Of a stretch of 64,000 nt of DNA, positions 11,233 to 31,694 are shown one piece after another (positions within the stretch are counted from its first letter, which is position 1; the number at the start of each line of letters is the position of its first letter). A model generated the notes under the pieces. That model did no database searches, had not been told where the DNA came from, and worked only from the letters and a program-made list of their open reading frames with translations. Location of the stretch: the NCBI GenBank assembly GCA_903930565.1, contig CAIYZC010000357.1:4728-68727 (forward strand). The letters run 5' to 3'. A program made the translations under genes and the position numbers. This DNA comes from an uncultured Pedosphaera sp. Lineage in GTDB: Bacteria > Verrucomicrobiota > Verrucomicrobiia > Limisphaerales > Pedosphaeraceae.

Positions 11233-11261
11233 TTGACAGGTTCTGCCATCGGTGAGAATAT
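11233..11261 (+). promoter_or_regulatory. Sigma70-like promoter (TTGACA - 17 nt - GAATAT, TG at -15/-14), with an AT-rich UP-like tract upstream
   Basis: TTGACA at 11233-11238 and gaatat at 11256-11261, preceded by 'aaaaataattt'. The entire module is repeated almost verbatim at 24374-24450. Confidence 0.55.
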
Positions 11262-11278
11262 ACGACCAAGTTGATCGT
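11262..11278 (+). promoter_or_regulatory. Near-palindrome ACGACCAAGTTGATCGT overlapping -10/+1 (candidate repressor operator)
   Basis: 14 of 17 positions are self-complementary. An identical 17-mer occurs at 24427-24443 in the same position relative to a TTGACA box. A perfect relative occurs at 11705-11723. Confidence 0.5.
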
Positions 11279-12154: not shown

Positions 12155-13087
12155 ATGAACACGAACCAGAAACCATCCGAATTGGGAGCCGCCCAATCCC
12201 TTACTCCTGTCGCCCTTGCCTTGCCGCGCTTCCCCTTGCCCGCCCGGCCCCGGCGGCGGGCCGCGGCCGGGGCTTTCACGCTCATCGAATTACTGGTGGT
12301 CATCGCCATCATCGCCATCCTGGCGGCCATGCTCCTGCCGGCCCTGGCCAAGGCGAAGGACAAGGCGAAGGCAATCAATTGCGCGTCCAATCTGCACCAG
12401 TGGGGCGTGGTCTGGAGCACCTATACCTCCGACAATGCGGATTCATTCCCGCCGGGGACCAACCCCGACGGCAGCCCCGACCCCAACGCCCGTTCCGCTT
12501 GGTATGACTCGCTGCAGCACGATACCGCCACCTTCCAGAAAATTGTGCTTTGCCCGTCGGCGATGAATACCAACTACAACCTCTCCACCGCCGCGGGCCA
12601 GGCATCGTTTGGGGGGCTGGACACCGCCTTCCGTTTCCCCACGGCGGCGGGAAACGCGGATCTATACGAGGACGGCCAACCCGGGGGATACGGTGCGAAT
12701 CTATGGATATACAACACCCAAGTGGACATCCAAAACCGGGTGGCGGCCAACCATTGGCGCAAAACCTCGGGCACGCCGTTGCCCAGCCAAACGCCGTTGA
12801 TGGCGGACAGCATGTGGCGCGGCGGCGGACCGTGGTACGGCCCGGACGCGCGCACCTATCAGGCCGCGACCGGCCCCGGAGTGTCCTCGGGGGACGCCTC
12901 CCGTGAGATGGAACATTTCTGCGTCCCCCGTCATGGCTCGGGCAAGCGGACCGAACTGGTGTTCTTTGACGGTTCCGCCAGCACTCTCCGAGTGCAGAAC
13001 TTGTGGTCGCTCAAGTGGCACCAGAATTGGGATCAAAGCTATCAGGCGAACAATTACGCCCTGCCCACGTGGGTCCGGGCGCAGTGA
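12155..13087 (+). CDS. Prepilin-type N-terminal cleavage/methylation domain protein (type II pseudopilin-like, DUF1559/H-X9-DG-like)
   Basis: '[42 protein letters not shown]' is the class III signal/pseudopilin motif. The C-terminal '[19 protein letters not shown]' resembles the H-X9-DG tail with slightly longer spacing. The 38-aa leader is long, so the true start may be an internal non-ATG codon. Confidence 0.8.
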
Positions 13088-13160
13088 CCGCGATGGCCGA
13101 ACTCAAACGAAATTCACAGGGTAAGTCAAATGTAGTCCCAAGTTTCAAGCGATCATCAAA

Positions 13161-16100
13161 ATGAGAATTCCACAGGGTTTATTGTTGGTAGCGGCCGCCG
13201 GGGCACTGGCGCTCGCCGCGGACAGCCGGGCTGGTTCTGCCTATCAGTTGTCGTACCAGTATGATTCGACCGCATCGGATCCAACGCAGTTTCGTCAAAG
13301 CGTCTCCACGTTGACCAACGATGTGTTCTTTCCGTACAGCCCGTCCTTTGGGCAGCAGTTGGATGACTGGTATGTCTTCGCCGGCACCTCCCCCAGTTTC
13401 GGGCTGCAAGGATCGCAGCAGATTGAGGGGCCGGCCAACGGCACCGATTACGGCACTTGGATCTTTGGCTACCTCGAAGCCCCGCTGACCGGGGCGTATG
13501 TCCTCTCGATCGCCAGCGCGGACAACTCGCAGTTGTGGCTGAGCAATGACTATAATCCGACCAACGAAGTGCTTATCGCCTACGAACCAGGGTCGGGCAA
13601 TCCGCTATTTTCCGGCGGCGACCTCGACACTCGGAATTCCGCGCCCATCAACCTGGTCCGGGGTCAGAAGTACTACTTCGACGTGTACCAACAGGTTGGT
13701 CCCGGCCCCGGTTATGTCCAGGTGGGCTGGGTGCGGCCGGATGGCGTTCAGGAGTTGATTCCGGCGCTGCATTTGGCCCAGTACGAGGGCTACAACTTTT
13801 ACACGGGAATCGGACCCATCCAGGCGCCGCAGTTCAATGCGCCGGGAAACGGCAACCATGGCGGTTTCAATGGTGGCAACCTCACGAACTCGGTCGCGCT
13901 CGCGGAAGGGCAGGAGCTGCTCTTGCAACTGGATGTCATCGCCCAACAGCCGACGACGTTTACTTGGTTTACCAACGGGGTGGTAGTGGCCGGGCAAAAC
14001 CTTTCGTATTTTGATGTGCCGCGCACGCCCGCCACCTACAACAATTTTCAAATCCAAGCGGTGGTGGCCAACCAATTCGGCAGCCTGACGAGTGCTGTGT
14101 CCCATGTGACGGTGGCGCCGAACACCACCCGGCCGACGGTGGCCACGGTCGATACCGCCGGGAGGCCCAACACTTTGGAAGTGGTGTTCAGCAAACCCCT
14201 CGACCCGACGAGCGCCACCAATCTGGCCAACTACCAGGTTAGCGTGGTCGGCGGCGGGGAGTTCCCCTTGAGCGGCGCCGTGCCGTCCCTCTCATCGGAT
14301 CAGCAAACCGTGACTTGGTCCGGCGCTTTCAGTTTTGCCGCGGGAACCACATATCTGCTGACCATCAGCGACGTGCGGGACCAGGCCAGTCACCCCAACA
14401 TCCTGAACCCCAATCCGACCACGTCCCCGTTCACCCTGAGCGCACCGCTGGGCACGACCTACAATTTTAATGCCGGTCTCCCAACCGGGGTCGCGCTCTA
14501 CGGCAACGCCGTCATTGAAACCAGTCCGGATCCCACCATTGGCGGATACATCGCCCTAACCGACGCCGCCCGCAACGAAAGCGGCGCCGTCCTCCTCACG
14601 GCGCGCAACAACATCGACGGAGCCCACATCAAATTTGATGCCAGTATCGGGTCCTCGTTCAATGCCCTGACCGGCGGCTCCGACGGGGGGGACGGCTTCA
14701 GCGTGAACATTTCGGCAAATTTGCCTTTGGGAACGTTTCAGAATCCGCAATTTGGCTACTCACCGCCGGTCGCCGAGCCGCAATTCAGCGTGTATTTCAA
14801 TACCCGCCAAAACGGCGCGCAGAATCCCGTCGAAATCGGCGTCGCCTTGAACGGGGTCGTGTTGACCAATGTGCCGGCCGGCACCAATTTCAACAGCCTG
14901 GATGGCGTTCCCCCCCTCACCAGCGCCGACGGGCATTGGGCGCCGGTGGACATCAATCTCCAGCGCGATGGCACGCTCAATTTGTCGTTTGACGGCGTGG
15001 TCGTGGTCACCAATTTTCCCACGGGATGGGTGGGTTTGAATAGCGCCCAGGTCGGCCTCGCGGCCAGAACCGAGAATTGGTTCGAGACCCACTATATCGC
15101 CAATTTATTCTTGAACTTCTATGAGGGCTACGTGGGCAATGTCGGCCTGGCCGCCAACAGCGTTTTGGGCGGAACCTTTCCCGAGGGCTCGACCGTCATG
15201 CTCCTGGCCAACCCCACGGGCGCAGGACCGGATTTGTATCAGTGGTACCGCAATGGAACCCCGATCAGCGGCGCCACCAACCGGGTGCTGTCCTTTCCGG
15301 CGACGGTGGGTGCGGGTGGCGGTTTTTCCCTGGGGATCAGCAATTCCTTTAGTGGGTTCTTGAGCAGTCCGCAGAGCGTGGTGATTCAACCGAATCTGAC
15401 GCCGCCCCAAGTCGTCTCGGGCAAAGCCACCGCCGGCAGCATCAATAAATTGTTCCTGCAGTTCAATCAGACGCTCGAAGTGGTGAGCGCGACGTCCCCC
15501 GCCACCTATTCTTCGCCCTATTTTGCGGTGACCGGCGTGACTTTGGGCGTGGATGGTCGAAGCGTCGTGTTACAGACCACCCAGCAGCGCTACGGCGCGA
15601 GTTATCCCGTCACCATCCGCGGTTTGAAAGACAGCTACGCCGCGCAGAATGTATTGAACACCAACCTCACGGTGGTTTCCGGTCTGAGCTACGACGATGA
15701 AGTCCTCGGGGACTCCCCGGTGCGCTATTACAAACTCAACGAGACGGGTGGTACGGTGGCCTACACCCAAACCACGGGCGGCGATTCCCTGAACACCAAC
15801 GGCATCTATCAGTTCGCCCCGTTGCTGGGCAGTCCGTCCATTGTTCCCTCGGCCGCGAACGATTTCGCGGCTCTGTTTGTCAACAGCAGCAGCAATAATG
15901 TCCTTGTGCCCAACAATGGCGACATTAATGTGACCCGCGGCCCCTGGCACCAACGGAGCATCGAATTGTGGTTCAATGCGAGCAGTTTTCCGATCGGCCG
16001 GCAGCCGGGGGACAGCGCGGTGAACGCCCAGACGCATGCCGTGACCGGGCTGTGGCAGGAAGGGGGGAATCTGCGGGATATCGGAATCTATCTCTGGAAT

Positions 16101-18590: not shown

Positions 18591-18637
18591 GAATTGCCCG
18601 CCAACCTTTAACCCAATCCAAGAAAGAGTAATTCCCT

Positions 18638-21433
18638 ATGAGGCACTTACAACAGCTCAAATACCTCCGGTCATGGTTGACCGTTTCGGTCCTGGCGGTG
18701 GCGACCGCCGCGAGCGGTCAGGGCGCCGCCAAGACCAAGTCCATCACCCCCGCGCAACGCGAATTCTTCGAAAGCAAGATCCGCCCGGTGCTCATCGAGC
18801 ATTGCTACGACTGCCATTCGGACGAGAAGGGCAAGAACAAAGGCGAGTTGACGCTCGACACCCGCGATGGGATTCGAGCGGGTGGTGATCGGGGACCGGC
18901 GGTGGTGCCCGGGAAGCCGGATGAAAGCGTCCTGATCAACGCCATCCGCCAGGTCGGCCAATTGCGCATGCCCCCCGATTCGCGCGGTGGTCCGCTGTCC
19001 GAAAGTGTGGTGGCGGATTTCGAAAAATGGGTGGCGGAGGGCGCCCCGGACCCCCGCGACGCCGCCAAAGTGGGCGTGGTTGAGGCGGCGAAGCCGGAAA
19101 AGCCGGTGGAATGGGACAAGGAACGGCAGTTTTGGGCGTTTCAAAAGCCGAAAGCCGTGACGCCGCCCCAAGTGCTGAATACGGGGTGGGCGAAATCACC
19201 GGTGGATCAATTCGTCCTGGCGGGATTGGAGACCAAAGGTCTTCACCCAGTCGCGGACGCGGACAAGCGGACGCTGCTGCGGCGGACTTATTATGACCTG
19301 ATCGGTTTGCCCCCGTCCCCCGCGGAGATCGAGAGTTTCGTGCAGGATTTGGCGCCGGACGCGCTGGAGAAGATCGTGGACCGCCTGCTGGCCTCGCCGC
19401 GCTTTGGGGAACAATGGGGGCGCTATTGGCTGGACGTTGCGCGGTACGGGGAATCAACGGGGTTGGATCGCAACTTGAATTTTCCCTACGCCTGGCGATA
19501 TCGCGACTACGTCATCGACGCGTTCAACCACGACAAACCCTACGACCGGTTTATTTTGGAACAGATCGCCGGGGATCAACTGCCTTTCACCAGTGAAAAG
19601 GAACATGACGCCAACCTCACGGCGACCGGCTTTTTGGCCATCGGCCCCAAGGGTTTGAACGAGACGCGCGTGAAGTACTCCAAATGGCAGGTGGTGGTGG
19701 ACCAGATCGACGCCACCTCCCGGGGCTTTCTGGGGCTGACGGCGGGTTGCGCCCAGTGCCACGATCACAAGTTTGATCCCATTCCCCAGAAGGACTATTA
19801 CGCACTGGCCGGGATTTTCTCCAGCACCGAAACCCTCTATGGAACGGTCGGGGGACGCGGTAATCGCCGGCCGACCTCGTTGCTGTCGCTGGCCGGCGCC
19901 CCCGCGCTGGCGGTGCTCTCCACCGGGGAGCCGACGCCCAACATGTTCGTGAACACGAACGCCAACTTCAATGCCACGCCCCGCACCAATGGATTGGCCC
20001 GCCGGGTGAATGGCACGAACGGCTTTGGTGGCGGCGCGCGTCGCTTCGCACGCAACGTCAGCACCAACATCCTGGAGCGCATCCCGGCGACCAACACCTA
20101 CGCGATGGGCGTGCGCGACTATGACGAGCCGCAAGCGGCGTCCATCTATTACCGGGGGGATTTGACCAAGCCGCGGGATACCGTCCCGCGCGGTTTCCTC
20201 CGGATCTTGGCGTTGCCCCAGACCCCGGCCATTCCCACCAATGCCAGCGGCCGACTGCAACTGGCGCAATGGATCACCGACCCCGAGAATCCGCTGACCG
20301 CGCGCGTCGCCGTGAACCGGGTCTGGCAACATTTGTTCGGCGAGGGGATTGTCGCCACGCCGGATAATTTCGGGCACCTTGGGACCGCTCCCACCCATCC
20401 GGAATTGCTGGATTATTTGGCGGCGAAGTTTGCCACGGAGCAGAAGTGGTCCTTCAAGCAACTGGTGCGCTCCCTGGTGCTGACGCGGGCCTACCAACTC
20501 AGCAGCGAGATCGACGCCAAGGCCGCGGAGGCGGATCCGGAGAACCGTTTGCTCTGGCGGGCGACACCCCGGCGGCTCAAAGCCGAGCAGTTGCGCGATT
20601 CCATTCTGACTTCGAGCGGCCGCCTCGACTTGAATCCCCCTGCCTTCCCCGACACCGCGCGGTTTGGCGACGGTTACTACGGGGTGAACATTTGGGAGAG
20701 CGACCTGCCCCAGCACTTCTATTCCCGGAGCGTTTATCTGCCCGTGCCGCGCGATCTCGTGCCCGAATCCCTGTCCCTTTTCGATCTCCCGAATCCCAAC
20801 CTGGTGGGCGCCCACCGGGAGGAGACGACCTCGCCCAGTCAGGCGCTTTTCCTGATGAACAACGCCTTCGTGCAGGACGAGGCCCTGCACCTGGCCCGGC
20901 AACTTGCGAGCAACCAGGACTTGTCGGATGCGGAACGTATTCAACGGGCCTACCTGGCGGTGTTCCAACGGCGGCCGAGCCCGGACGAAGTCCAGCGCGC
21001 CACCCGGTTCATCCAGGAGGAGGCCGGCGTCTTGGCGGAGACTAAGTCGTTCAAGCCCGAGCAAACCGGGTTGGACATCCAATTGAAGCCCGCACCGGAA
21101 GCGCCGGCGCCCGCCGGTGAAGTGGCGGTGCCCCAGTTCGCCAAAGCCGAGCCTGCCGCCCCAGTGCCGGCGGCGGTGGTGGGGGCTCCGGCCGTCGCGG
21201 ATGACGGGACCAACGCCCCAGCCGCGGGGGGCTTCAATCCCCGCGGCCCCCGGCGCTATCTCGGCCCCGGTTCGGCGAGCGATGTCGTGGTTGGCAAACT
21301 GGCGCCGGGTATCGCCCGGCCCAAGGTTTTCCAGCAAGCCCTGCCGGAGCAGCCGGCCACGCCCGAGGAAGGTGCTTACGCGTTGTTCGCGCAGGCCTTG
21401 TTCGGCAGCGCGGAATTCCGCTATTTGCAGTGA
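18638..21433 (+). CDS. PSCyt1 (CxxCH) / DUF1549 (PSCyt2) / DUF1553 (PSD1) protein
   Basis: 'FFESKIRPVLIEHCYDCHS' is a planctomycete cytochrome-c motif. 'DQFVLAGLETKGLHPVADADKRTLLRRTYYDLIGLPPSPAEIESF' is DUF1549-type. 'RVAVNRVWQHLFGEGIVATPDNFG' is DUF1553-type. Confidence 0.85.
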   Translation: MRHLQQLKYLRSWLTVSVLAVATAASGQGAAKTKSITPAQREFFESKIRPVLIEHCYDCHSDEKGKNKGELTLDTRDGIRAGGDRGPAVVPGKPDESVLINAIRQVGQLRMPPDSRGGPLSESVVADFEKWVAEGAPDPRDAAKVGVVEAAKPEKPVEWDKERQFWAFQKPKAVTPPQVLNTGWAKSPVDQFVLAGLETKGLHPVADADKRTLLRRTYYDLIGLPPSPAEIESFVQDLAPDALEKIVDRLLASPRFGEQWGRYWLDVARYGESTGLDRNLNFPYAWRYRDYVIDAFNHDKPYDRFILEQIAGDQLPFTSEKEHDANLTATGFLAIGPKGLNETRVKYSKWQVVVDQIDATSRGFLGLTAGCAQCHDHKFDPIPQKDYYALAGIFSSTETLYGTVGGRGNRRPTSLLSLAGAPALAVLSTGEPTPNMFVNTNANFNATPRTNGLARRVNGTNGFGGGARRFARNVSTNILERIPATNTYAMGVRDYDEPQAASIYYRGDLTKPRDTVPRGFLRILALPQTPAIPTNASGRLQLAQWITDPENPLTARVAVNRVWQHLFGEGIVATPDNFGHLGTAPTHPELLDYLAAKFATEQKWSFKQLVRSLVLTRAYQLSSEIDAKAAEADPENRLLWRATPRRLKAEQLRDSILTSSGRLDLNPPAFPDTARFGDGYYGVNIWESDLPQHFYSRSVYLPVPRDLVPESLSLFDLPNPNLVGAHREETTSPSQALFLMNNAFVQDEALHLARQLASNQDLSDAERIQRAYLAVFQRRPSPDEVQRATRFIQEEAGVLAETKSFKPEQTGLDIQLKPAPEAPAPAGEVAVPQFAKAEPAAPVPAAVVGAPAVADDGTNAPAAGGFNPRGPRRYLGPGSASDVVVGKLAPGIARPKVFQQALPEQPATPEEGAYALFAQALFGSAEFRYLQ

Positions 21434-21464
21434 TTCCCAACCTTCCATCCAAACTCGTATAATC

Positions 21465-22913
21465 ATGAACCAACCACCTCTTCCCCAACGCTGCGACGGA
21501 GTCATCCCCGGGGTCTACACCCGGCGCCAGATGCTCAAGACCCTCACCACCGGCTTCGGCTATATGGCTTTCTCCGGGCTGGCCACCCAGGCCGCCCTGG
21601 CCGAGGGCCTGGGCGCGGACCCCGCCGCCGGCGCGGCCGCGGACGCGAGCCTGCTGCTGCCGAAAAAGCCGCATTTCGCCGCCGGCGCCAAGCGGATCAT
21701 CTTCCTCGGCATGGAAGGCGCCCCGTCCCATGTGGACACGTTTGATTACAAACCCAAGTTGCAGGCCGACAACGGGAAGACCTCGCCGACCAACGAGGAC
21801 CGTCAGATGCTCGGTTCCACCTTTGGCTTCAAGCAATACGGGCGGAGCGGCAAATGGATCTCCGAGTTGTTCCCCCAGGTGGCGACCCACGCGGATGAAC
21901 TGTGCTTCCTGCACGGCATGTGGACCAACGCGCCCGCGCTGCACCCGCAGGCGTGGCCGGCGTTGCACACCGGCAGCCCGGTGTTCGTCCGGCCGTCGAT
22001 GGGCTCCTGGATTCTCTACGGTTTGGGCACCATGAACCAAAACCTGCCCGGCTTCGTCACCATCAAACCGGCGCTGTCCATCGGCGGCGGGCAATCCTAT
22101 GAGTCCGCCTTCCTGCCCTCGGTTTATTCAGCCACCCGCATTGGCGAATCCAAGACCGACATCCGCAATTGCGGCGTCAACAACATCCGCAACGCCAATA
22201 TCGACAACCGGGCCCAGCGCCGCCAAATCGATTTCGTGCAGGAGTTGAACCACGATCTCCTCAAAAAGGGCTCCCTCGACCACCAAGTCGAAGGGGTCAT
22301 TCAATCCTACGAACTCGCTTTCAAGATGCAGATGGAGGTTCCGGAAGTGACGGACATCTCGAAGGAATCGCAAAAAACCTTGGACCTCTACGGGGTGGGC
22401 CAGGATGAAACCGATGACTTCGCCCGCCAATGCCTGCTGGCCCGGCGCTTCGCCGAAGCCGGCGTGCGGTTCATCGAAGTGTGCTACGATGACTGGGATC
22501 ATCATGGTCAGCTCTACACGGGCCTCAAAAAGAGCACCCGGGCGGTGGACCAGCCGATCGCGGCCCTGCTCACGGATCTCAAGGAGCGCGGTTTGCTCAA
22601 GGACACGCTGGTTCTCTGGGGCGGCGAGTTTGGCCGCACCCCGGACAGTCCCAAACCCGACGGCCGCGATCACAGCACCAAGGGGTGGACGATGTGGATG
22701 GCGGGCGGCGGCGTGAAGCCCGGCTTCTCCTACGGCGCCACCGACGAGTACGGCATTAGCGCCGTCGAGGGGCGCATGGATTACCACGATTTGCACGCGA
22801 CCCTCCTGCATGCCTTCGGGCTCGACCATGAGAAGCTCACCTACCGCTACGGCGGGCGGGATTACCGCCTCACCGACGTTTCGGGCATTGTCGCCGAGGA
22901 GATTTTCGCCTGA
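21465..22913 (+). CDS. DUF1501 (sulfatase/alkaline-phosphatase-superfamily-like) protein with Tat-like signal
   Basis: 'TRRQMLKTLTTGFGYMAFSGLA' is twin-arginine-like. 'EGAPSHVDTFDYKPKL' and 'WGGEFGRTP' are typical of DUF1501. This is the canonical partner gene of DUF1549/DUF1553 proteins. ATG 21465 is chosen over the out-of-context 21117 start. Confidence 0.85.
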   Translation: MNQPPLPQRCDGVIPGVYTRRQMLKTLTTGFGYMAFSGLATQAALAEGLGADPAAGAAADASLLLPKKPHFAAGAKRIIFLGMEGAPSHVDTFDYKPKLQADNGKTSPTNEDRQMLGSTFGFKQYGRSGKWISELFPQVATHADELCFLHGMWTNAPALHPQAWPALHTGSPVFVRPSMGSWILYGLGTMNQNLPGFVTIKPALSIGGGQSYESAFLPSVYSATRIGESKTDIRNCGVNNIRNANIDNRAQRRQIDFVQELNHDLLKKGSLDHQVEGVIQSYELAFKMQMEVPEVTDISKESQKTLDLYGVGQDETDDFARQCLLARRFAEAGVRFIEVCYDDWDHHGQLYTGLKKSTRAVDQPIAALLTDLKERGLLKDTLVLWGGEFGRTPDSPKPDGRDHSTKGWTMWMAGGGVKPGFSYGATDEYGISAVEGRMDYHDLHATLLHAFGLDHEKLTYRYGGRDYRLTDVSGIVAEEIFA

Positions 22914-22946
22914 ACCAATTCTGCCCCAAACCTTCAACTCATACTT

Positions 22947-23786
22947 ATGCTCAATTCTGACCAAACCAAGTTCGTGGCGATCAAACGTGGCTTCCTGACC
23001 CTGCTCGCCCTGGGCACGCTGCTCTCGGCGCGCGCCGAGGACGCCAGCGGCCTGTGGAAATGGAGCACCCCCAACCGCAGTGGCGGGCCGGACCGGGTGG
23101 TGAATTTGAAACTCGCCATCGAAGGCCGCACCCTCACGGGCAAAATCTATACCCCCAATCGCACCAACGACACCTTCGCCGAGGTGGAGATCAAAGACGG
23201 AACGATCCAGGACGGGGAATTGTCCTTCACGGTTTCCCGTGGCGGCCGCGGGGGCGGCGCCGGGATTGTGACCAAATACACCGGCAAATTGAAGGGGGAC
23301 AAAATCGAGGGCAAGATTGAAACCCCTTCGCGCGATGGCGAGGTCCGCGCGCTGGATTGGAAAGCCGAGCGCAACACCACGGGGCAATTGATTGCCGGGG
23401 AAAAAATCGTCCTCAAGCCCGGCTATGACGAAAACGGAAACAAGATTGTCAATGAGACCCACTACAAAGAGGTTTCGGTGGATGAAGCGGAAAAGTTTCT
23501 CGCCGGCCATCCCGAGGCGATCATCTTGGACGCCCGCTCCCCGGAGGAGTTCGCCGCCGGCCATTTGCCGAACGCGAAGAACTACAACTTGACCGACAAA
23601 GACACCTACAAAAGCTTGCTGGCCGGCTTGGACAAATCCAAATGGTACGTGGTCCACAGCGCGGTGGGACATTATCGCACCGTGCGGGCCTTGGAGTATT
23701 TTGAGGCCAACGGCTTCGAGCACGCCATTGCGATCGACGGCGGCTACGCCGCTTGGGCGAAAGCCGGCAAACCCACCGTGAAATGA
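22947..23786 (+). CDS. Secreted two-domain protein with C-terminal rhodanese-like domain lacking the catalytic Cys
   Basis: Signal-like N-terminus. The C-terminal 'IILDARSPEEFAAGHLPNAKNY...WYVVHSAVGHYRTVRALEYFEANGFEHAIAIDGGYAAW' matches the rhodanese fold, and the active-site loop (HSAVGHYR) contains no Cys. Confidence 0.7.
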   Translation: MLNSDQTKFVAIKRGFLTLLALGTLLSARAEDASGLWKWSTPNRSGGPDRVVNLKLAIEGRTLTGKIYTPNRTNDTFAEVEIKDGTIQDGELSFTVSRGGRGGGAGIVTKYTGKLKGDKIEGKIETPSRDGEVRALDWKAERNTTGQLIAGEKIVLKPGYDENGNKIVNETHYKEVSVDEAEKFLAGHPEAIILDARSPEEFAAGHLPNAKNYNLTDKDTYKSLLAGLDKSKWYVVHSAVGHYRTVRALEYFEANGFEHAIAIDGGYAAWAKAGKPTVK

Positions 23787-23823
23787 CCGGCACGGTCTCC
23801 CGGTCTTTGGATCCGGGCACCCC

Positions 23824-24228
23824 ATGAAGCATTCCGTTCGAGTAATTCTTGTTACGGGAGCCGCCCTGCTGGGCGCGAGCCTGCCGGCTCGCGCCCGGCC
23901 CGGCACTCCGGTGGACGATCCCGTCGCGGGCAAAGCCAAATACTCCATTGCGCAGGTGATGAAGGCCCTGCACAAGGGGGAGGACTCCATCGGCAAGCGG
24001 GTCGGTCGCGGGCAGGGGACCAAGGAGGACTTTGCCAAGCTGGTGGAGTACTACGAATCCCTCCCCCTCAACGAACCGCCGGAGGGCGGTTCGGCAAGCT
24101 GGAAGAAAAAGTCGACCGCCCTGCTCGTCTCCGCGAAGGCACTGAATGAAGGCCGGGAAGGCGCCTTGGCCGCTTACAAGCAAGCGGTGGACTGCAAGGC
24201 TTGCCATGAAGTGCATCGGCCGGAGTGA
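23824..24228 (+). CDS. Small periplasmic c-type cytochrome (class II / cytochrome c'-like: single CxxCH near the C-terminus)
   Basis: Signal peptide 'MKHSVRVILVTGAALLGASLPARA'. About 110-aa helical-looking mature part. 'CKACH' lies 8 residues from the C-terminus. Confidence 0.6.
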   Translation: MKHSVRVILVTGAALLGASLPARARPGTPVDDPVAGKAKYSIAQVMKALHKGEDSIGKRVGRGQGTKEDFAKLVEYYESLPLNEPPEGGSASWKKKSTALLVSAKALNEGREGALAAYKQAVDCKACHEVHRPE

Positions 24229-24397
24229 TCCTGGTGCTGTCGCCCTTGCCGTCCCGCACAAATTTTTATCGGCGGCCGCCGACAAGTTTGAAGCCAGGCC
24301 GCCGGGTGGATGAAAAAGCCAATCGTGATAACCGGTTCATCATCAAGGGTTTAGAAACATTTTTGAAGGTTCGCTAAAATAATTTTACGAATCCTTG

Positions 24398-24426
24398 TTG
24401 ACAGGGGAGGAGTTCACGATCAATAT
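24398..24426 (+). promoter_or_regulatory. Sigma70-like promoter (TTGACA - 17 nt - CAATAT), second copy of the 11233 module
   Basis: TTGACA at 24398-24403 and caatat at 24421-24426, preceded by 'aaaataattt', as at 11210-11220. Confidence 0.55.
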
Positions 24427-24443
24427 ACGACCAAGTTGATCGT
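24427..24443 (+). promoter_or_regulatory. Near-palindrome ACGACCAAGTTGATCGT (identical to 11262-11278)
   Basis: Exact 17-nt identity, with conserved flanks: 'aatatACGACCAAGTTGATCGTGaATGGCGG' versus 'aatatACGACCAAGTTGATCGTGtATGGCGG'. Confidence 0.5.
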
Positions 24444-24828
24444 GAATGGCGGCTGCTAAATCCGCAAATATCAGCCGCGGAGGTCGGATCGATCTTCCGC
24501 GGTGTCGGAACGGGCTTCGCTGATCGTCGGAGTGGCAGGCAAGGCTGGAGTTCTGCTGGTTAACCCCGAAACCCGAAACCCGAAAGGGTCCAAGGAAGTG
24601 TTTGGAACGTGGGCAGGAATCGATCCGGGATTTTAGCCGGGCTCCCGACGTCCGCGAAGCATTCGTCCAGGTAAAACGCATCCGTAACGAAGATGGCCGC
24701 CTTGAATTTCACCAAGCGTGGGGAAAGTGCCAGTCCGGCCGCCGGTCCGGGTCCGGAAGGGCTGCGGCCAAATTGAATCGATACCACGACTCCCCGGGCT
24801 GGCGCATCCGGCCCTCGGTAATCCCCCT
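24433..24828 (+). promoter_or_regulatory. About 0.4 kb structured leader upstream of the M14-like/cysK/encapsulin genes, related at both ends to the 11.3-12.0 kb leader units
   Basis: The 5' end is identical to unit A. The 3' part, 'tcaccaag...gccagtcc(ggccgccggtccgggtcc)ggaagg...tcgatacc', parallels 'ctcaccagtccactggaagtttcgatacg' of unit A, with an expanded hairpin. Confidence 0.4.
24565..24585 (+). repeat. Heptanucleotide tandem repeat (CCCGAAA)x3 followed by GGG
   Basis: Read directly: 'cccgaaacccgaaacccgaaaggg'. The last unit can form a CCC-GAAA-GGG tetraloop hairpin. Confidence 0.9.
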
Positions 24829-25662
24829 ATGAATCCCTCCCCAACTATTATGCGCGCACTCGTTCCCAAGCGGCGTACCGTGCTGCCCACCGAGAGCCCG
24901 GCGGAGCACCGCCGAGCGGATCCTCCGATTGAGTTCCTCCAGCCGCTGCTGGATTTGGCCCGAGTCTCGGATTCCGTCATCGCGGGAACCGTCGGGAAAT
25001 TTACGGCGGGGGGCGGAACTTTTCGCATTCCCCGCTTCATTTTCATGGGCCCGACGGGCGGCGGCCAACCAATTCGGATTGGTTTGTTCGCCTGCTTCCA
25101 TGGTGACGAATGGGAGGGGGCGGAGGCGTTGGTCGAGCTGTTTCTGCATTTCGAGCGCCATCCCGAATTGGTGAAGGACTTTCACCTTTACGCCTATCCT
25201 GTTTGCAATCCCTTTGGCTTCGCGGCGAGCGCCCGCCGCAACGCGAATGGCTGCGACTTGGCTGCCGAGCTCTGGCGCGGTTCCTCCCAAGTGGAGGCTT
25301 ATTATGTGGAGCGGGAAATGGGCGTGCATCAGTTTCACGGCGTGATTTCCTTACACACGGCCAAGAATTCCAGCCGGTTCTCCGCCGCGTGCCCCAGCGC
25401 CCTTCTCCAAGAGGCGGTGGCCGGGCCCGCCCTCTTGGCCACCCGGCGGTTCAGCCCGGCCGGTGCCGATAGCGCCGTCGGCCTGGCCGTGCCCAACGGC
25501 TTTCTGACCGCGACCGACGAACTCCGTCCCGCTCCCTTTGAAATCAACCTGGCCATCCCCCGCCTGCTGCCCGGTCCCTTCTGGGTTCAGGGAACGGTGG
25601 CCGCCTTGGCCTCGATCCTGCACTCCTACCGCAACCTGATGGCCTTTCGCCCAAATATATGA
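24829..25662 (+). CDS. M14 / succinylglutamate-desuccinylase-aspartoacylase-like zinc hydrolase family protein (divergent)
   Basis: 'GLFACFHGDEWEG' is an HxxE zinc motif. 'YPVCNPFGF' is the NP.G motif. 'ISLHTA' is a candidate third zinc ligand. The usual 'DLNR' reads 'DLAAE'. The start is taken at ATG 24829, since the ORF upstream of it lies in the leader. Confidence 0.55.
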   Translation: MNPSPTIMRALVPKRRTVLPTESPAEHRRADPPIEFLQPLLDLARVSDSVIAGTVGKFTAGGGTFRIPRFIFMGPTGGGQPIRIGLFACFHGDEWEGAEALVELFLHFERHPELVKDFHLYAYPVCNPFGFAASARRNANGCDLAAELWRGSSQVEAYYVEREMGVHQFHGVISLHTAKNSSRFSAACPSALLQEAVAGPALLATRRFSPAGADSAVGLAVPNGFLTATDELRPAPFEINLAIPRLLPGPFWVQGTVAALASILHSYRNLMAFRPNI

Positions 25663-25843
25663 TTACATTCTGGAATGTGGCCGTCCCCGGTCTTCCCGGC
25701 CGTTTGGCGGTCGGCCCCGCGACTAACGATGTTTGTGGGTCTGGGTGCTTATTCCAAACTTGCCCGGGCGCGGCCCTTGCGTTATTCGTCAAAAAAGACG
25801 GCGGCATTCCAGCCTGTTCTTGGACGCAACTTATCTAAATTCT

Positions 25844-26827
25844 ATGGGAAACATCTACCAAAACATCACCGAAACCATTGGGCGCACTCCCTTGGTTAAA
25901 CTCAACCGGGTGGCGGCCGGCGTGCCCGCCACCATCCTGCTCAAGTGCGAGTTTTTTAATCCCTTGGGCAGTGTCAAGGACCGCATCGGTCTGGCCCTGA
26001 TCGAGGACGCGGAGCGGCGGGGCGTGCTCAAGCCGGAAACCGTGATCATTGAACCCACCAGCGGCAACACCGGCATCGCCCTTGCTTTTGTCGCCGCCGC
26101 GAAGGGATATAAGATCATCCTGACCATGCCCGAAACGATGTCGTTGGAGCGGCGCACGCTCCTGGCGTTGCTGGGGGCGAAACTCGTGCTCACGCCCGGT
26201 AAAGAGGGGATGAAGGGGGCGATCGCCCGCGCCGAGTTGTTGGCGAAGGAAACGCCCAATTCCTGGATTCCCCAGCAGTTTGAGAACCCGGCGAATCCGG
26301 CCGTCCACCAACGGACTACCGCGGAGGAGATCTGGGCGGACACGGATGGCCGGGTGGACATTTTGGTGGCGGCGGTGGGCACGGGCGGCACGATCACCGG
26401 TTGTGTGGAGGTAATCAAACCGCGCAAGCCCACGTTCGTGGCGATCGCCGTCGAGCCGAAGGATTCGCCGGTGATTTCGCAGACCCTGGCGGGGCAAACA
26501 CCGGTGCCGGGGCCGCACAAAATTCAAGGCACCGGGGCGGGATTTGTGCCCAAAAACCTGCACCTGAAGGACAGCCTGGGCCATTCGCAGATTACGGAGT
26601 GCGTGCAGGTGACCAATGACGAAGCCATCGGGATGGCGCGACGGCTGGCCAAGGAAGAAGGGTTGTTGGTGGGAATTTCTACCGGCGCGAATGTGGTGGC
26701 GGCGCTGCAAGTGGCGGCGCGACCGGAGAACCATGGGAAGATTATCGTTACCGTTGCTTGCTCCACTGGCGAGCGATATCTCAGCACTGCCTTGGCCGAC
26801 GAAGCCCGGGCGGCCGTCGGGGGCTGA
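25844..26827 (+). CDS. cysK: Cysteine synthase A (O-acetylserine sulfhydrylase)
   Basis: '[12 protein letters not shown]', the PLP-lysine motif '[11 protein letters not shown]', and '[11 protein letters not shown]' with 'GTGGTITG'. Full-length, about 327 aa. Confidence 0.9.
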
Positions 26828-26871
26828 GCGACGTCGAGTCGCGGGCGGGCGCGGAAGGTGCACGAAGTTGT

Positions 26872-26899
26872 TTGACAACCACCGCGATTACCTTAGCCT
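26872..26899 (+). promoter_or_regulatory. Candidate promoter (TTGACA - 16 nt - TAGCCT) for the encapsulin operon
   Basis: Consensus -35 hexamer at 26872-26877, but only a weak TAnnnT -10. It would leave a leader of about 290 nt. Confidence 0.3.
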
Positions 26900-27195
26900 G
26901 ACTCCACCGGCCCGGCATTCTGAACCCATCAATTGCCGCGACCGGATCCAAACCAACCGACAGTCAGTGAAGTCGGGCCGACCGGACCACCGGAAGCCTC
27001 ATGAAAATGCAGTTTTATTCATGCCGGCCGCCTCTCAGGTTCGCGGTGGAGCCCAAGTAAGTTCCGCTCGTTTTGCGATCCCGGAATTCTCCCGTCAGGG
27101 ATTTCCGCGCCGCCGGCATTTCACCCTCCCCTCCGCATCACGGGGTGGCACATCCCGGGTAGTCAATCCGGCAACCGCCGCCCCCACCCACGACC

Positions 27196-28167
27196 ATGCC
27201 GAATAATCCAGATTCCAAGATTCCCGGACTCAGCCTCAGCGCCACCGCCGCGCGCAACCTCGCCACCGCCACCGTAACGGTGCCGCAGATGGCGGAAATT
27301 ACCCCGCGTTGGCTTCACCGTCTTCTGCCTTGGGTGGATGTGGACGGCGGGGTCTACCGGGTCAACCGCATCGCGAAAGCGGCGGCCGGCAAACCCGCCA
27401 ATGAGTTCGGGGAAACAAAAGTGGATCTCGTCACCGTGGACGGCGGCGAACCCAAATTGCCCACCACTTTCGTCAATTACGAGGAGGACCCCCGCGAGTA
27501 CCATCTGAGCACCATCCAGACGGTGCTGCGCACCCACACGCGCGTCACCGACCTGTACAGCAACCAGATCGACCAACTGCGCGAACAAATCCGCCTGACG
27601 GTCGAAGCGGTGAAGGAACGCGAGGAATGGGAGCTGATCAACCATGCGGCCTTCGGCCTGCTGCATGAAGTGGCGCCTTCGCAAAGAATCCATACCCGCA
27701 AAGGCGCGCCTTCGCCCGATGATTTGGATGAACTGCTCACCTTGGTTTGGAAGAGGCCCGCGTTCTTCCTGGCCCATCCCCGGGCGATCGCTGCTTTCGG
27801 CCGCGAATGCACCCGCCGGGGCGTGCCGCCGCCCACCGTGCAGCTGTTTGGCTCCCCGTTCCTGACCTGGCGGGGTTTGCCGCTCATCCCCAGCAACAAA
27901 CTCGAGTTGAATGCCAAGACCGGCGCGACCAGCATTCTGTTGCTGCGTGTGGGGGAGGCGGAGCAAGGCGTCGTGGGCCTGCAAAAAACCGGGGTCACCG
28001 GGGAAGTCGAACCGGGCCTCTCCGTCCGCTACATGGGCACCAACGAGAATTCCATCGCCTCCCACTTGATCACGCGCTACTTCTCCACCAGCGTGCTCAC
28101 CACGGATGCCATCGCCCGCCTCGACAACGTCCTCGTTGACCAATATCATGAGTATCAGTGGAAGTGA
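27196..28167 (+). CDS. Family 2A encapsulin nanocompartment shell protein (HK97-fold, no cNMP-binding domain)
   Basis: Motifs 'ITPRWLHRLLPWV', 'GVYRVNR', 'DPREYHL', 'GAPSPDDLDELL', 'AAFGRECTRRGVPPP', 'LTWRGLPLIPS', 'QGVVGL', 'GLSVRY' and 'DQYHEYQ' match my recollection of SrpI-type Family 2A shells. The gene is directly followed by an N-terminally extended cysteine desulfurase. Confidence 0.85.
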   Translation: MPNNPDSKIPGLSLSATAARNLATATVTVPQMAEITPRWLHRLLPWVDVDGGVYRVNRIAKAAAGKPANEFGETKVDLVTVDGGEPKLPTTFVNYEEDPREYHLSTIQTVLRTHTRVTDLYSNQIDQLREQIRLTVEAVKEREEWELINHAAFGLLHEVAPSQRIHTRKGAPSPDDLDELLTLVWKRPAFFLAHPRAIAAFGRECTRRGVPPPTVQLFGSPFLTWRGLPLIPSNKLELNAKTGATSILLLRVGEAEQGVVGLQKTGVTGEVEPGLSVRYMGTNENSIASHLITRYFSTSVLTTDAIARLDNVLVDQYHEYQWK

Positions 28168-29863
28168 CGCCGGCGCCGGCGCAACTCCGGCGGCGGAGGG
28201 CGACCCCAATGATCTGATTGCCCGGCTGGTGGCGGAGGAATACTCCAAATCAATCCGGCCCGGGGCTCCGACTCCCGGCTGGCCGGTCGTGGCCGACGCT
28301 TTGCGGTCGGCCGGCGCGCCGCGGGTCGATCTGCCCTTGCCCGCGACCGCAGCCGCCCCTTTGCCTCCGGTGCACCCCAGCTCGCAACCGCCCGCGCCCG
28401 CGCTGGCGCCCGCGAAATCGCCCGCCTCGGGCGCGCATGAACCCGAGTCGGCCGACAGCTATGCGTTCGGCGAGCCGCGTTGCAACGGTCGGTTGGCCAC
28501 CCACCCGGCCGGGGCGCGGCCCGCCGGGGCGCACCTCCGGTCGGACCCCGACGCCGCGCCGGAGTATTATTTTCTGCGCGCCGGCCAATCAAAGGGGCGG
28601 AAGGTGTCGGCGGGGGCGCCATACGCCGCCACCGCGACCCCGGTTCCCAGTTTCGATCCGGAAGGCGTGCGGCGGGATTTCCCCGCCCTGCACCAACGGG
28701 TCAACGGGAAGCCTTTGGTTTGGCTCGACAACGCGGCCACCACGCACAAACCCCAAGCGGTGTTGGACGCCACCGCCGAGTTTTACGGGCGCGACAATTC
28801 GAACATCCACCGGGCCGCGCACACGCCGGCGGCGCGCGCCAGTGAATTGTTTGAGGCGGGCCGCGAAAAAGTGCGGCGCTTTCTGGGCGCCGCCGACGCC
28901 AAGGAAATCGTCTTCGTCCGCGGGACTACCGAAGCGATCAATTTGGTCGCCCAATCCTATGGCCGCCAACATGTCGGCCCGGGCGACGAAATCATTGTCA
29001 CCGAGTTGGAACACCATGCGAACATCGTGCCCTGGCAGTTGCTGGCCGGGCAGACGGGGGCCGCGTTGCGTGTGGTGCCCATCAACGACCGGGGCGAATT
29101 GATCTTGGAGGAATACGCGAAACTGCTCGGGCCGCGAACCAAACTGGTCGCGGTGGCGCACGTTTCCAACTCCCTCGGCACGATCAATCCCGTGGAGCAA
29201 ATCATCGCGCTGGCGCACGCCCGCGGCGTGCCGGTGCTCGTGGATGGCGCGCAATCCACCCCCCACCTGCCGGTGAATGTGACCGCTTTGGACGCCGATT
29301 TCTATGTGTTCTCCGGGCACAAAGTTTTCGGCCCGACCGGTGTCGGCGCCCTTTACGGCAAAGCCGCCTGGCTCGAAGCGATGCCACCCTGGCAGGGCGG
29401 CGGGCACATGATCAAGGATGTGCGGTTTGAAAAAACGGTTTACCAGTCGGCCCCGGAGAAGTTCGAAGCCGGCACGCCCGACATCGCCGGCGTGGTGGGC
29501 CTGGGGGCGGCGATCGACTACCTGTTCAAGTTGGGCCTGCCCGCGATCGCGGCCTACGAGCATTCCTTGCTGGAATATGCCACGCACGCGTTGGCCGGAG
29601 TTCCCGGCTTGCGCCCGATCGGCACGGCCGCGAACAAGGCGAGCGTGTTGTCCTTCGTCATTCCGGGCATCCCCAACGAGCGGATCGCGCGGCACTTGGA
29701 CCGCCAAGGGATCGCCGTGCGCGCGGGGCATCATTGCGCCCAGCCCGCCCAGCGGCATTTCGGATTGGAAAGCACGGTCCGCCCCTCGCTGGCTTTTTAC
29801 AACACCCGCGCCGAAATTGACCAACTCGTGCGCGCGCTTCGGCAGCTCCGGCGCGATTTTTGA
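28148..29863 (+). CDS. Encapsulin cargo cysteine desulfurase (SufS/CsdA-like, group II) with an N-terminal extension of about 185 aa, Pro/Ala-rich
   Basis: Catalytic core motifs: 'LDNAATTHKPQAVLDA', 'FSGHKVFGPTGVGALYG' (PLP Lys) and 'RAGHHCAQP' (catalytic Cys). The N-terminal low-complexity region contains 'LIARLVAEEY', resembling the LARLANEFF cargo-loading motif. ATG 28148 overlaps the shell gene by 20 nt (alternative ATG at 28106). Confidence 0.85.
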   Translation: MSISGSDAGAGATPAAEGDPNDLIARLVAEEYSKSIRPGAPTPGWPVVADALRSAGAPRVDLPLPATAAAPLPPVHPSSQPPAPALAPAKSPASGAHEPESADSYAFGEPRCNGRLATHPAGARPAGAHLRSDPDAAPEYYFLRAGQSKGRKVSAGAPYAATATPVPSFDPEGVRRDFPALHQRVNGKPLVWLDNAATTHKPQAVLDATAEFYGRDNSNIHRAAHTPAARASELFEAGREKVRRFLGAADAKEIVFVRGTTEAINLVAQSYGRQHVGPGDEIIVTELEHHANIVPWQLLAGQTGAALRVVPINDRGELILEEYAKLLGPRTKLVAVAHVSNSLGTINPVEQIIALAHARGVPVLVDGAQSTPHLPVNVTALDADFYVFSGHKVFGPTGVGALYGKAAWLEAMPPWQGGGHMIKDVRFEKTVYQSAPEKFEAGTPDIAGVVGLGAAIDYLFKLGLPAIAAYEHSLLEYATHALAGVPGLRPIGTAANKASVLSFVIPGIPNERIARHLDRQGIAVRAGHHCAQPAQRHFGLESTVRPSLAFYNTRAEIDQLVRALRQLRRDF

Positions 29864-29874
29864 ACCCCCTGCGA

Positions 29875-30861
29875 ATGAGTGCCTTACCGATTGAAGCGGG
29901 GACGCCCGCCCTGCCGAGGGAAACCCGCCGGGACGCCGTTTGGATGCGCGAGGTCTTGGAGGAAACGGTCCCGGAGTTGCTCCACTCCTATCAGCGCGCC
30001 GGCGGATTGAACCATCGCGAATCGCACAACCTGCCCTCCAAGCGGGCGGTGGGGCAGATTTGCGAGGGCTTGCTGCAAATCCTCTTCCCGGGCTTTCACG
30101 ATGATGACGTGGTGCCCCACGGCTCCTTGGAAGAATTCACCACACGCCGGCTCGCGACAGTCGTCCAAGCCTTGATTGACCAGGTGCGCAAGAGCGTGCG
30201 CGTGGGCGATCCTCATAAGCCGACCGGCAAGACGCCGCCCATCATTCGCAAGTTCTGCCGCGCTTTGCCCGAAATCCGCGAATTGCTGCGCTGGGACGTC
30301 GAAGCGGCGTTTGACGGTGACCCCGCGGCGTTGCTTCGCGAAGAAATCATCCTCTCCTATCCCTTCATTGAGGCCGTGGCCATCCAGCGTCTGGCCCACC
30401 GCCTGCATGTGTTGGGCGCGCCCGTGCTGCCGCGCATGATGACGGAGTGGGCGCACAACCGCACGGGGATCGACATTCATCCCGGCGCGCTCCTTGGGAC
30501 GCATTTTTTTATCGACCACGGAACCGGCATCGTCATCGGCGAAACCTGTCGTATCGGAAACCACGTCAAAATCTACCACGGCGTCACCTTGGGCGCCCGG
30601 AGCTTTGTCAAAGACCAGTCGGGCCACATCATCAAGGGGGGCAAGCGGCATCCGGACGTGGGCGATCATGTGACCATTTATCCGAACTCCACCATCCTGG
30701 GCGGCAAGACCTTCATCGGCTCCAATTCCACCATTGGCGCGAACGTGTTCCTCATGCACAGCATCCCGGCCAATTCGCTGGTGGTTTACGAAGAGAAACA
30801 ATTGACCATTCGGGAAAAGCCGGAGCCAAAAGCGCCCGCCGACCGGGATTCCTCGATGTGA
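29875..30861 (+). CDS. cysE: Serine O-acetyltransferase
   Basis: Left-handed beta-helix hexapeptide core 'GIDIHPGALLGTHFFIDHGTGIVIGETCRIGNHVKIYHGVTLGA'. Long helical N-terminal domain. Start is ATG 29875, or TTG 29860 overlapping the upstream stop. Confidence 0.85.
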   Translation: MSALPIEAGTPALPRETRRDAVWMREVLEETVPELLHSYQRAGGLNHRESHNLPSKRAVGQICEGLLQILFPGFHDDDVVPHGSLEEFTTRRLATVVQALIDQVRKSVRVGDPHKPTGKTPPIIRKFCRALPEIRELLRWDVEAAFDGDPAALLREEIILSYPFIEAVAIQRLAHRLHVLGAPVLPRMMTEWAHNRTGIDIHPGALLGTHFFIDHGTGIVIGETCRIGNHVKIYHGVTLGARSFVKDQSGHIIKGGKRHPDVGDHVTIYPNSTILGGKTFIGSNSTIGANVFLMHSIPANSLVVYEEKQLTIREKPEPKAPADRDSSM

Positions 30862-31406: not shown

Positions 31407-31694
31407 CGTCTGCTCCAGTAGCGAAACTGCTATCCCCGCTCCCGGCCAACACCCTTTGCTTCCATTGTCAGCAGACTCACCGAATCACGGGAAGTCGCGC
31501 GCCGGTTCGCCGTGAAGACGATTCCCTTTTGCGGTCCTCCAAGCTCAAGGCGTTCAGGGTGCCGGCCGCCATACCCCAGCTTTCCGACCCTACCATGGGA
31601 GGTCAAAACCGGTTCGCTCCGCTCCGCGCCGCCGTTTGGGGGCGTGGGAGTGGTGCGACCCAAACTCATCCTAATCTTAAGCCTAATACAAATA

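Follow-up and report, generated by a model that had tools for sequence, protein, structure and literature searches.

A candidate sulfur-assimilation regulon of Limisphaerales, marked by a promoter operator and a leader hairpin, with a conserved envelope operon as a probable member

Introduction

A 64-kb stretch of DNA from an uncultured Pedosphaera species of the Limisphaerales (64,000 nt; hereafter the window) carries two consecutive strings of genes on one strand. The first encodes exported proteins and is termed here the envelope operon, and the second encodes cysteine-synthesis enzymes together with a Family 2A encapsulin shell (Enc) and its cysteine desulfurase cargo (CyD) (Table 1). The motifs, positions, conservation, gene neighborhoods, and protein features described below make it probable that the window holds part of a Limisphaerales sulfur-assimilation regulon set by two elements, a palindromic operator at the promoter (O) and a hairpin in the leader (H), and that the envelope operon is a conserved member of this regulon, because O and H precede it as they precede sulfur genes. 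A single regulon joining the two strings had been proposed in an earlier note on this DNA, and the proposal is now supported by three independent comparative lines, namely, the operator, the hairpin, and the neighborhood of the envelope operon in related genomes.

Planctomycetes and Verrucomicrobia each have dozens of DUF1501 and PSCyt/PSD1 (DUF1549/DUF1553) genes in a genome, and these families were flagged between 2004 and 2012 as conserved modules of unknown function (PMC3542564, PMC5615132). For the DUF1501-PSCyt1/PSCyt2/PSD1 modules of these phyla, function has been called unknown and no regulation has been reported (Kamneva et al. 2012, PMC3542564; He et al. 2017, PMC5615132). Sulfur starvation raises the expression of Family 2A desulfurase encapsulin operons ~10-fold in Acinetobacter, and induction is known from Synechococcus as well (PMC10836720, PMC8049743). 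Nothing describing a link between the envelope operon and sulfur was found in the literature on DUF1501/DUF1553, DUF2292/YezD, and Verrucomicrobia encapsulins.

A shared promoter–operator module

In the window, whose base composition is ~65% G+C, the 22-mer ATATACGACCAAGTTGATCGTG occurs exactly twice, at 11258–11279 and 24423–24444, against 0 expected from shuffles, and ~75 nt of similarity surrounds the two copies. The earlier note had placed the same promoter, operator, and leader module at both strings, and in this it was correct. The stretch shared by modules 1 and 2 runs AAAATAATTT..GAA.CC.TGTTGACAGG, N17, (G/C)AATAT, ACGACCAAGTTGATCGTG, (T/A)ATGGCGG. An AT-rich stretch is common to both modules, the 17-nt spacer between the −35 and −10 elements is not conserved in sequence, and leader similarity falls to ~55–60% within ~70 nt. 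At the core of the module stands operator O, a palindrome of the form ACGAC-N7-RTCGT. Three such sites are present in the window, compared with 0.2 expected; O1 (from 11262) and O2 (from 24427) each lie directly against the −10 element, where they could serve to control initiation, and O3 is a further copy within the pseudopilin leader.

Module 1 is real, as the head of the first string had been described, but it lies 877 nt 5′ of the pseudopilin start at 12155 and outside the range that had been assigned to that string. In alignment, window positions 11262–12154 resolve into two ~440-nt units, A and B, that both match the single leader of relatives, with a −35 element only in unit A. From these alignments we read the 0.9-kb pseudopilin leader as a tandem duplication of the relatives' single leader, which would account for both the 877-nt distance and the third operator. 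Protein-coding readings of 10811–12155 (97-, 120-, and 116-aa open reading frames [ORFs], and paralogous ORFs from 11569 and 11981) were discarded, as they have no homolog in any locus; an apparent homolog in L013/L015 (loci of relatives bear L numbers) sits inside a TonB-like gene.

Operator O in other Limisphaerales

The sampled loci were those around Enc, pseudopilin, or rhodanese genes, a biased ~1.9 Mb to which the window was added, and relatives were searched with the relaxed pattern ACGAC-N7-RTCG(T/C). A stricter pattern, ACGACC-N5-GRTCGT, had returned nothing in 80 Enc-anchored loci; the notion of a lineage-specific module was refuted by the conserved sites of the relaxed pattern. Across many Limisphaerales loci, the operator with its AT flanks follows the consensus TAATA-ACGAC-N7-GTCGT-TATTA, with an AT-rich N7. 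The palindromes of relatives are often paired, 90–120 nt apart, always begin at the end of the −10 element, as in the window, and differ in their N7 spacers between sites within one genome.

More than 12 promoter regions of sulfur genes carry operator O among these loci. In L003, TTGACT-N17-ATAATA-ACGAC is followed by a DUF2292 small protein, hairpin H, a sulfate-binding protein of the SBP_bac_11 type (sbp), and CysK. Operator-bearing promoters likewise precede cysK (L005), DUF2292-cysK (L010, L017, L098, L104), cysE (L020), M14-like-cysE (L033), PAP2/VCPO-like genes (L006, L029), and Enc with a divergent rhodanese-YgaP gene (L047); in L005, L006, L020, L029, L033, L047, L098, and L104 the operators come in pairs. 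The arrangement TTGACA-N16/17-TATTAT-ACGAC-N7-RTCGT is found 350–390 nt 5′ of the pseudopilin gene in L081, L082, L084, L087, and L105, and the operator thus precedes the orthologous envelope operon in six of eight species, the window included. A generic strong promoter found before unrelated genes had been named as one outcome that would speak against a common regulon; the module is not generic, and within the biased 1.9 Mb and the window the operator stands before sulfur and envelope operons.

Several observations bear on the regulator. A different palindrome, TCTAC-N7-GTAGA, heads two pseudopilin-led operons in L086, both with the same hairpin leader, and this swap may represent a change in regulator specificity. 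Pfam scans of the window's ORFs reveal no transcription factor gene, and no solved relative was found for DUF2292, considered as a candidate small regulator. Operator O bears some likeness to Rrf2/IscR type-1 sites, with different spacing. A Reg_prop protein (two-component regulator propeller; 61843–63998) runs off the end of the window; in L101, sensor kinases of a similar kind, together with GerE-type response regulators, come after the envelope operon, with no link to the operator established.

The leader hairpin and its upstream open reading frame

A BLAST comparison of the long leader with encapsulin loci gives a match ~200 nt 5′ of many Enc genes, and the matching segment is hairpin H, of the form GCU-GA-CCRG-NCNA-CYGG-A-RGY with 7 bp. 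Its 3′ arm is the Shine-Dalgarno sequence (GGAGG/GGAAG), at a fixed spacing of 5 nt before the ATG of a short upstream open reading frame (uORF), and its loop measures 4 or 5 nt. H is found before sbp, cysE, M14-like, and PAP2-like genes as well, and in the leaders of envelope operons; in the window it precedes both Enc-CyD and the envelope operon. The variable pair of the stem, compared over 39 distinct copies, reads A-U in 11, G·U in 16, G-C in 12, and A·C in none. In alignment A7, 96.9% of cells are paired, and the covariation score of 0.285 (shuffles, 0.221) is attained by none of 500 shuffles, a modest signal that comes from 7 bp only in related sequences and is uncorrected for phylogeny. 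When the pairing partner is slid as a control, the paired share falls to 20–56%.

A covariance model, R2, was trained only on leaders of the Enc, sbp, cysE, and PAP2 types; neither the window nor any pilin leader contributed sequences to it. On the window it matches 11513–11553 (36.5 bits, E 3e-9), 26971–27011 (33.9 bits, E 2e-8), and 11925–11965 (15.9 bits, E 0.012), and nothing further; it also matches the pilin leaders of L082, L084, L086, and L087 with E values of 1e-4 to 1e-3. Rfam 15 yields no match at gathering score in the window and nothing at E ≤ 10 in an Enc leader, and only chance-level matches at E ≤ 10 on the long leader (11200–12200).

The pilin leaders of relatives are ordered as O, ~110 nt, hairpin P1, H with a 5-nt loop, and a uORF (M....NQSDF..), and their P1, CCCN..NGGG, shows a compensatory change from U-A to G-C. 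In the window, unit B has a possible uORF from the GTG at 11957 to 12139. The Enc uORF encodes a peptide of the form MK..(V/F)YSCRVV.., in the window MKMQFYSCRPPLRFAVEPK at 27001–27060, and its codon differences between species are synonymous. The uORFs contain no run of regulatory codons, many are devoid of any Cys codon, and no terminator/antiterminator alternative was found in the leaders.

The hairpin element crosses phyla. Loci from Nitrospirota metagenome-assembled genomes (L035 at 5735, L040 at 1499, and L041 at 4080) carry the same ribosome-binding-site hairpin, GACCGGACCACCGGAGGUUCUCAUG, in Nitrospira-type encapsulin neighborhoods, and in L035 and L040 it lies directly 3′ of a DUF2292 gene. 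Separately, a protein of ~80–130 aa with no Pfam match (..LLL.CRFDF.Q(R/K).W.LPA.. DFSDPSLGGANPS..) is encoded 3′ of the hairpin and uORF in several operator-controlled operons (L003 600–923, L006 16680–17030, L020 7893–8141, L029 1465–1803, and L033 3406–3807). Its start often overlaps the uORF in another frame, and the window has no copy.

The envelope operon and its neighborhood

Pfam matches and coordinates agree with the genes that the earlier note had named in the first string and with their intergenic gaps of 31–73 nt, and all six products carry export signals. The pseudopilin has many orthologs, 58–71% identical, that head the same operon in relatives. Every orthologous locus fetched has the gene order pseudopilin, ~1800-aa PA14/LamG/Ig protein, PSCyt1-DUF1549-DUF1553, DUF1501, and rhodanese-domain protein (L081, L082, L084, L085, L086, L087, and L105, and also L036), with a giant protein of ~1800 aa in all orthologous operons. 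The operon is kept as a unit in L036, L081, L082, L084–L087, L089, L092–L097, L101, and L105, and cytochrome c orthologs occupy the same position in L092–L098 and L104.

The DUF1549/1553-DUF1501-rhodanese set had been expected to co-occur with Family 2A encapsulins. Such co-occurrence exists, but the set stands next to Enc in only one or two of ~60 Enc-anchored Verrucomicrobial loci: the envelope operon is upstream only in L036, and a partial version in L011 consists of a giant-like gene, a small beta-domain protein, and a true sulfatase, followed by cysK-like and M14-like genes. The tandem arrangement with Enc downstream is that of the window and L036. An Enc-CyD-rhodanese/YgaP operon is divergent from the envelope operon in L087, and Enc-CyD-CysE is convergent with it in L089. 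In L092 and L093, the operon extends as far as DUF2292 by way of genes for a small beta-domain protein, a metallo-beta-lactamase-fold protein that is exported, and cytochrome c; on the L105/L092 contig, too, it ends with DUF2292. It abuts a convergent, operator-bearing DUF2292-cysK operon in L097, L098, and L104, and is followed by an M14-like gene in L100 and by a SorA-like molybdenum sulfite oxidase with cytochrome c in L101. For the envelope operon, adjacency to encapsulin is therefore occasional, and adjacency to sulfur metabolism is the rule.

A DUF1501 profile searched against PDB sequences gives eight matches at E ≤ 1, of which seven, all weak, are sulfatases or LtaS; the best is 9bb9 (E 0.005, ~50 residues), and the single sequence gives 7aj0 (E 0.055). 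DUF1501 may on this showing be a distant relative of the alkaline-phosphatase/sulfatase superfamily. The earlier note had tied the rhodanese-like protein to the encapsulin through the recurrence of rhodanese beside Family 2A encapsulin operons, an argument that fails: the protein is exported, has an extra N-terminal domain, and in the loop VVHSAVGHYRT has Ser in place of the catalytic Cys, as do all 11 aligned orthologs (12/12). To judge by these features, it is neither a canonical sulfurtransferase nor the rhodanese of R-AT-Enc-CD operons (PMC10836720). Its unannotated, exported N-terminal domain of ~130–150 aa is recognizable by the motif W.W.TPGRNGGPDR ... DW.AKR and is encoded at 22947–23450 in the window, 1235–1651 in L011, 8090–8569 in L036, and 10811–11290 in L092; within these clusters, separate genes also encode it on its own.

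The encapsulin/cysteine string and other features of the window

CysK, the encapsulin, the desulfurase, and CysE are all present in the second string as reported previously, but its first gene, which had been left unnamed, encodes an M14-like protein. The string had also been taken as one unit behind module 2. Module 2 does stand before the M14-like gene, but Enc has its own conserved promoter and leader in the 370-nt gap before it, with H present and the operator absent, and Enc-CyD-CysE is probably tied in not by module 2 alone but by H and the separate Enc promoter. Enc is 85–86% identical to proteins from Limisphaerales, Pedosphaera, and subdivision-3 metagenome-assembled genomes. In Verrucomicrobiota the M14-like protein often accompanies cysK, cysE, and Enc, with homologs near CysK, CysE, or Enc in L011, L014, L033, L050–L056, and L100, and with O and H upstream in L033.

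Three further features of the window were noted. A PAP2/vanadium-haloperoxidase-like gene (31512–33179) lies 3′ of cysE; its relatives in L006 and L029 carry operator and hairpin, whereas the window gene has a different AT-rich promoter region (31090–31180) and a 74-aa ORF before it. A 1335-aa ORF with no Pfam match (3313–7320) contains long arrays of 9-nt periodic repeats (CAGCGCGGC-like) at 5353–6887. At 58791–60525, two copies of a segment of more than 400 nt, 1314 nt apart and 75–79% identical, overlap FemAB/GNAT-like acetyltransferase genes, which suggests tandem paralogs.

Table 1. Coordinates of the regulatory features and genes of the two strings in the window
Feature	Position	Strand	Characteristics
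Promoter 1	11210..11261	+	AT-rich UP-like stretch; −35 TTGACA 11233-11238; 17-nt spacer; −10 GAATAT 11256-11261; TGA before −10
Operator O1, ACGACCAAGTTGATCGT	11262..11278	+	Fits ACGAC-N7-RTCGT; overlaps predicted transcription start
Leader unit A	11262-11705 including O1 (after O1: 11279..11705)	+	P1 11496-11507; H of ribosome-binding-site type 11519-11539; alignments A2, A4
Operator copy O3, ACGACCTAATAGGTCGT	11706..11722	+	Perfect palindrome; no recognizable −35
Leader unit B	11706-12154 including O3 (after O3: 11723..12154)	+	P1 11907-11918; H 11930-11949
Pseudopilin	12155..13087	+	Pfam N_methyl; prepilin N-methylation motif
Giant exported protein, 1809 aa	13161..18590	+	PA14, Laminin_G_3, and Ig domains; signal peptide
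PSCyt1-DUF1549-DUF1553 protein	18638..21433	+	Pfam; CYDCH heme motif
DUF1501 protein	21465..22913	+	Pfam; twin-arginine signal TRRQML
Exported Ser-rhodanese protein	22947..23786	+	N-terminal beta-rich domain without annotation; rhodanese homology domain
Small exported c-type cytochrome	23824..24228	+	Single C-terminal CKACH motif
Module 2	24370..24443	+	AT-rich stretch; −35 TTGACA 24398-24403; −10 CAATAT 24421-24426; operator O2 24427-24443
Leader 2	24444..24828	+	Like unit A for ~70 nt; no H hairpin
M14-like protein	24829..25662	+	HGDE motif; no Pfam match; weak PDB matches 2qvp, 3ieh
Cysteine synthase CysK	25844..26827	+	Pfam PALP
Enc promoter and leader	26872..27060	+	TTGACA 26872-26877; TAGCCT 26894-26899; H 26977-26997
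Family 2A encapsulin shell (Enc)	27196..28167	+	SrpI-like PF19307, E 4e-108, only Pfam match; no cNMP-binding (cyclic-nucleotide-binding) insertion
Cysteine desulfurase cargo (CyD)	28106..29863	+	Aminotran_5 residues 205-574 of 585; ~200-aa Pro/Ala/Ser-rich N-terminal extension
Serine O-acetyltransferase CysE	29875..30861	+	Hexapeptide

Proposed mechanism and alternative explanations

Operator O is read as a repressor site because it starts at the end of the −10 element, a position typical of repressors. The following account of repression, of the sulfur signal behind it, of what the hairpin does, and of what the envelope proteins contribute biochemically is an inference. A dimeric repressor would bind O over −7 to +10 and block RNA polymerase when sulfur is sufficient, and would be released on sulfur limitation. 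H would hide the ribosome-binding site of the uORF, gating its translation and thereby the expression of the downstream genes. The envelope operon would constitute an extracytoplasmic arm that, under sulfur scarcity, captures a sulfur source from outside the cell and processes it, and a cytoplasmic arm made up of CysK, CysE, the M14-like protein, and Enc-CyD would handle cysteine and stored sulfur. We further put forward, tentatively and with some reserve, that this DUF1501-PSCyt/DUF1553 subfamily is an extracytoplasmic sulfur-harvesting machine that is switched on at sulfur limitation, under a previously undescribed repressor operator and a new ribosome-binding-site hairpin/uORF riboregulator that is also present in Nitrospirota. 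Such a machine may be controlled jointly with sulfate uptake, cysteine synthesis, and the sulfur-storing encapsulin.

A number of observations weigh against the sulfur-assimilation regulon and its proposed workings. With regard to the promoters, a simple sigma-70 scan of the window does not call the module, which matches TTGACA at 6/6 positions and has GAATAT or CAATAT at only 3/6; this −10 hexamer is weak, and relatives carry TATTAT in its place. The likeness of modules 1 and 2 exceeds what an operator needs and points to a recent local duplication. Enc promoters mostly carry no O, the pseudopilin leader of L085 has neither an O nor an H signal, and in L086 the other palindrome sits at the operator's place in two copies (~470–500 and ~9095–9115). 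The occurrence of O only before sulfur genes comes from a sample that was itself anchored on sulfur and envelope genes. No consistent DNA-binding protein emerged by Pfam among the window's ORFs and the genes divergent from operators, and the neighbors of operator-bearing operons are inconsistent, with GerE-type regulators near some loci only. At the level of the leaders, the covariation of H is modest, units A and B have no canonical uORF start after H, and leader 2, before M14-like-cysK, has no H. Among the proteins, DUF1501 has no CxPxR sulfatase motif and the rhodanese domain no catalytic Cys, and the role given above to the envelope proteins is putative.

The regulon could instead answer reactive sulfur species, sulfite, or oxidative stress, with the exported operon detoxifying or oxidizing sulfane sulfur and sulfite rather than acquiring sulfur, as the CstR, SqrR, and BigR regulons do. 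Extended operons with an exported metallo-beta-lactamase-fold protein, AhpC, a Cys-containing rhodanese (L036), and cytochromes c would suit such a role, as would the SorA-like molybdenum sulfite oxidase with its cytochrome c in L101 and the sequestration of elemental sulfur by encapsulins (PMC10836720). We nonetheless hold this explanation to be rather unlikely: the same operator stands before the assimilation genes sbp, cysK, and cysE, no sulfide:quinone oxidoreductase or persulfide-sensor gene was seen, and Family 2A encapsulins were induced by sulfur starvation in both organisms tested.

Another question is whether H is a regulatory RNA at all; it might instead be a conserved region of strong ribosome binding, or act at the DNA level as the site of a second transcription factor. 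The stem is short, with three invariant G-C pairs and a self-complementary CCGG core; in the window's Enc copy a direct repeat, ACCGGA-CC-ACCGGA, can also be recognized, and the leaders have no common ligand-binding architecture. This appears quite improbable to us, since the commonest state of the variable pair, G·U, would be a mismatch in DNA while A·C is never seen, the loop varies between 4 and 5 nt while the spacing to the start codon is fixed, and sliding the partner drops pairing from 97% to 20–56%.

The PA14, Laminin_G_3, and Ig domains of the giant protein are lectin-like, PSCyt genes have been reported near sulfatases and carbohydrate-binding modules (PMC5615132), and a bona fide sulfatase lies between the giant-like gene and the cysK/M14-like genes in L011. 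Together these would fit a system for glycan or carbon acquisition that is co-regulated with sulfur only because its substrates are sulfated polymers, an account that we consider very improbable given that no glycoside hydrolase or sugar transporter occurs in any operon seen and that the accessory genes are redox or sulfur related. Finally, the modules might resemble each other merely through a recent copying of a promoter segment of ~80–150 nt within this genome, leaving the envelope operon adjacent but unrelated to sulfur. Both copies do agree beyond what the operator needs, in flanks, N7 spacer, and part of the leader, and other sites within one genome differ in their spacers. This account is scarcely credible, for the cross-species data largely exclude local promoter duplication alone: O precedes the envelope operon in five further species whose orthologous operon does not have Enc downstream, H is shared by leaders independently of O, and the sulfur-gene neighborhood recurs in different arrangements.

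Relation to known systems

In sulfate-starvation regulons such as those of CysB/Cbl with tau, ssu, and ats in Proteobacteria, CymR in Firmicutes, and McbR/CysR/SsuR in Corynebacterium, one regulator couples sulfate uptake and cysteine synthesis with the scavenging of external alternative sulfur sources. The McbR operator, TAGAC-N6-GTCTA, is of the repressor type, and operator O, a palindrome overlapping the promoter, resembles such types. The window differs from these regulons in its operator sequence and in adding a second signal at the RNA level, and its counterpart to tau, ssu, and ats is PVC-specific (Planctomycetes-Verrucomicrobia-Chlamydiae), composed of the pseudopilin, the giant protein, PSCyt/DUF1553, and DUF1501.

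The R-AT-Enc-CD operons (SrpI of Synechococcus, Acinetobacter baumannii 118362) share with the window an SrpI-like shell, an adjacent desulfurase with a long disordered extension, a CysE alongside, and a sulfur-gene neighborhood. They differ in that the window's Enc has a ribosome-binding-site hairpin/uORF leader and adjoins the M14-like and CysK genes, and in that its Ser-rhodanese belongs to the envelope operon and does not take the R position. The Enc-associated rhodanese of Verrucomicrobia seems to be the rhodanese-YgaP protein of L047 and L087.

The DUF1501-PSCyt modules are like the window's in placing PSCyt1-DUF1549-DUF1553 before a DUF1501 protein with a twin-arginine signal, in having LamG/PA14-type domains nearby, and in the export of all products, whereas the window's subfamily is fixed with a pseudopilin, a ~1800-aa protein, a Ser-rhodanese, cytochrome c, and sulfur-regulon signals. 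In having a uORF right behind a hairpin that pairs its Shine-Dalgarno sequence, 5′ of biosynthetic genes, H is reminiscent of leader-peptide and ribosome-binding-site-sequestering leaders. It departs from leader-peptide and attenuation systems in that its uORFs have no run of regulatory codons, and there is neither a terminator/antiterminator nor an Rfam family. The Family 2A desulfurase system and sulfur-starvation regulons joining assimilation with scavenging are thus already known kinds; the operator, the hairpin/uORF element, and the membership of the DUF1501-PSCyt/DUF1553 module are new.

Implications

The regulatory and neighborhood link gives one subfamily of the DUF1501-PSCyt/DUF1553 proteins a concrete, testable physiological context, sulfur acquisition. 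Operator O is a candidate bait for the sulfur regulator of Verrucomicrobiota, and hairpin H is a candidate RNA element with no Rfam family. The sulfur-storing encapsulin of Family 2A would in turn take its place in a broader sulfur economy of the whole organism, extending from the envelope to the cytoplasm.

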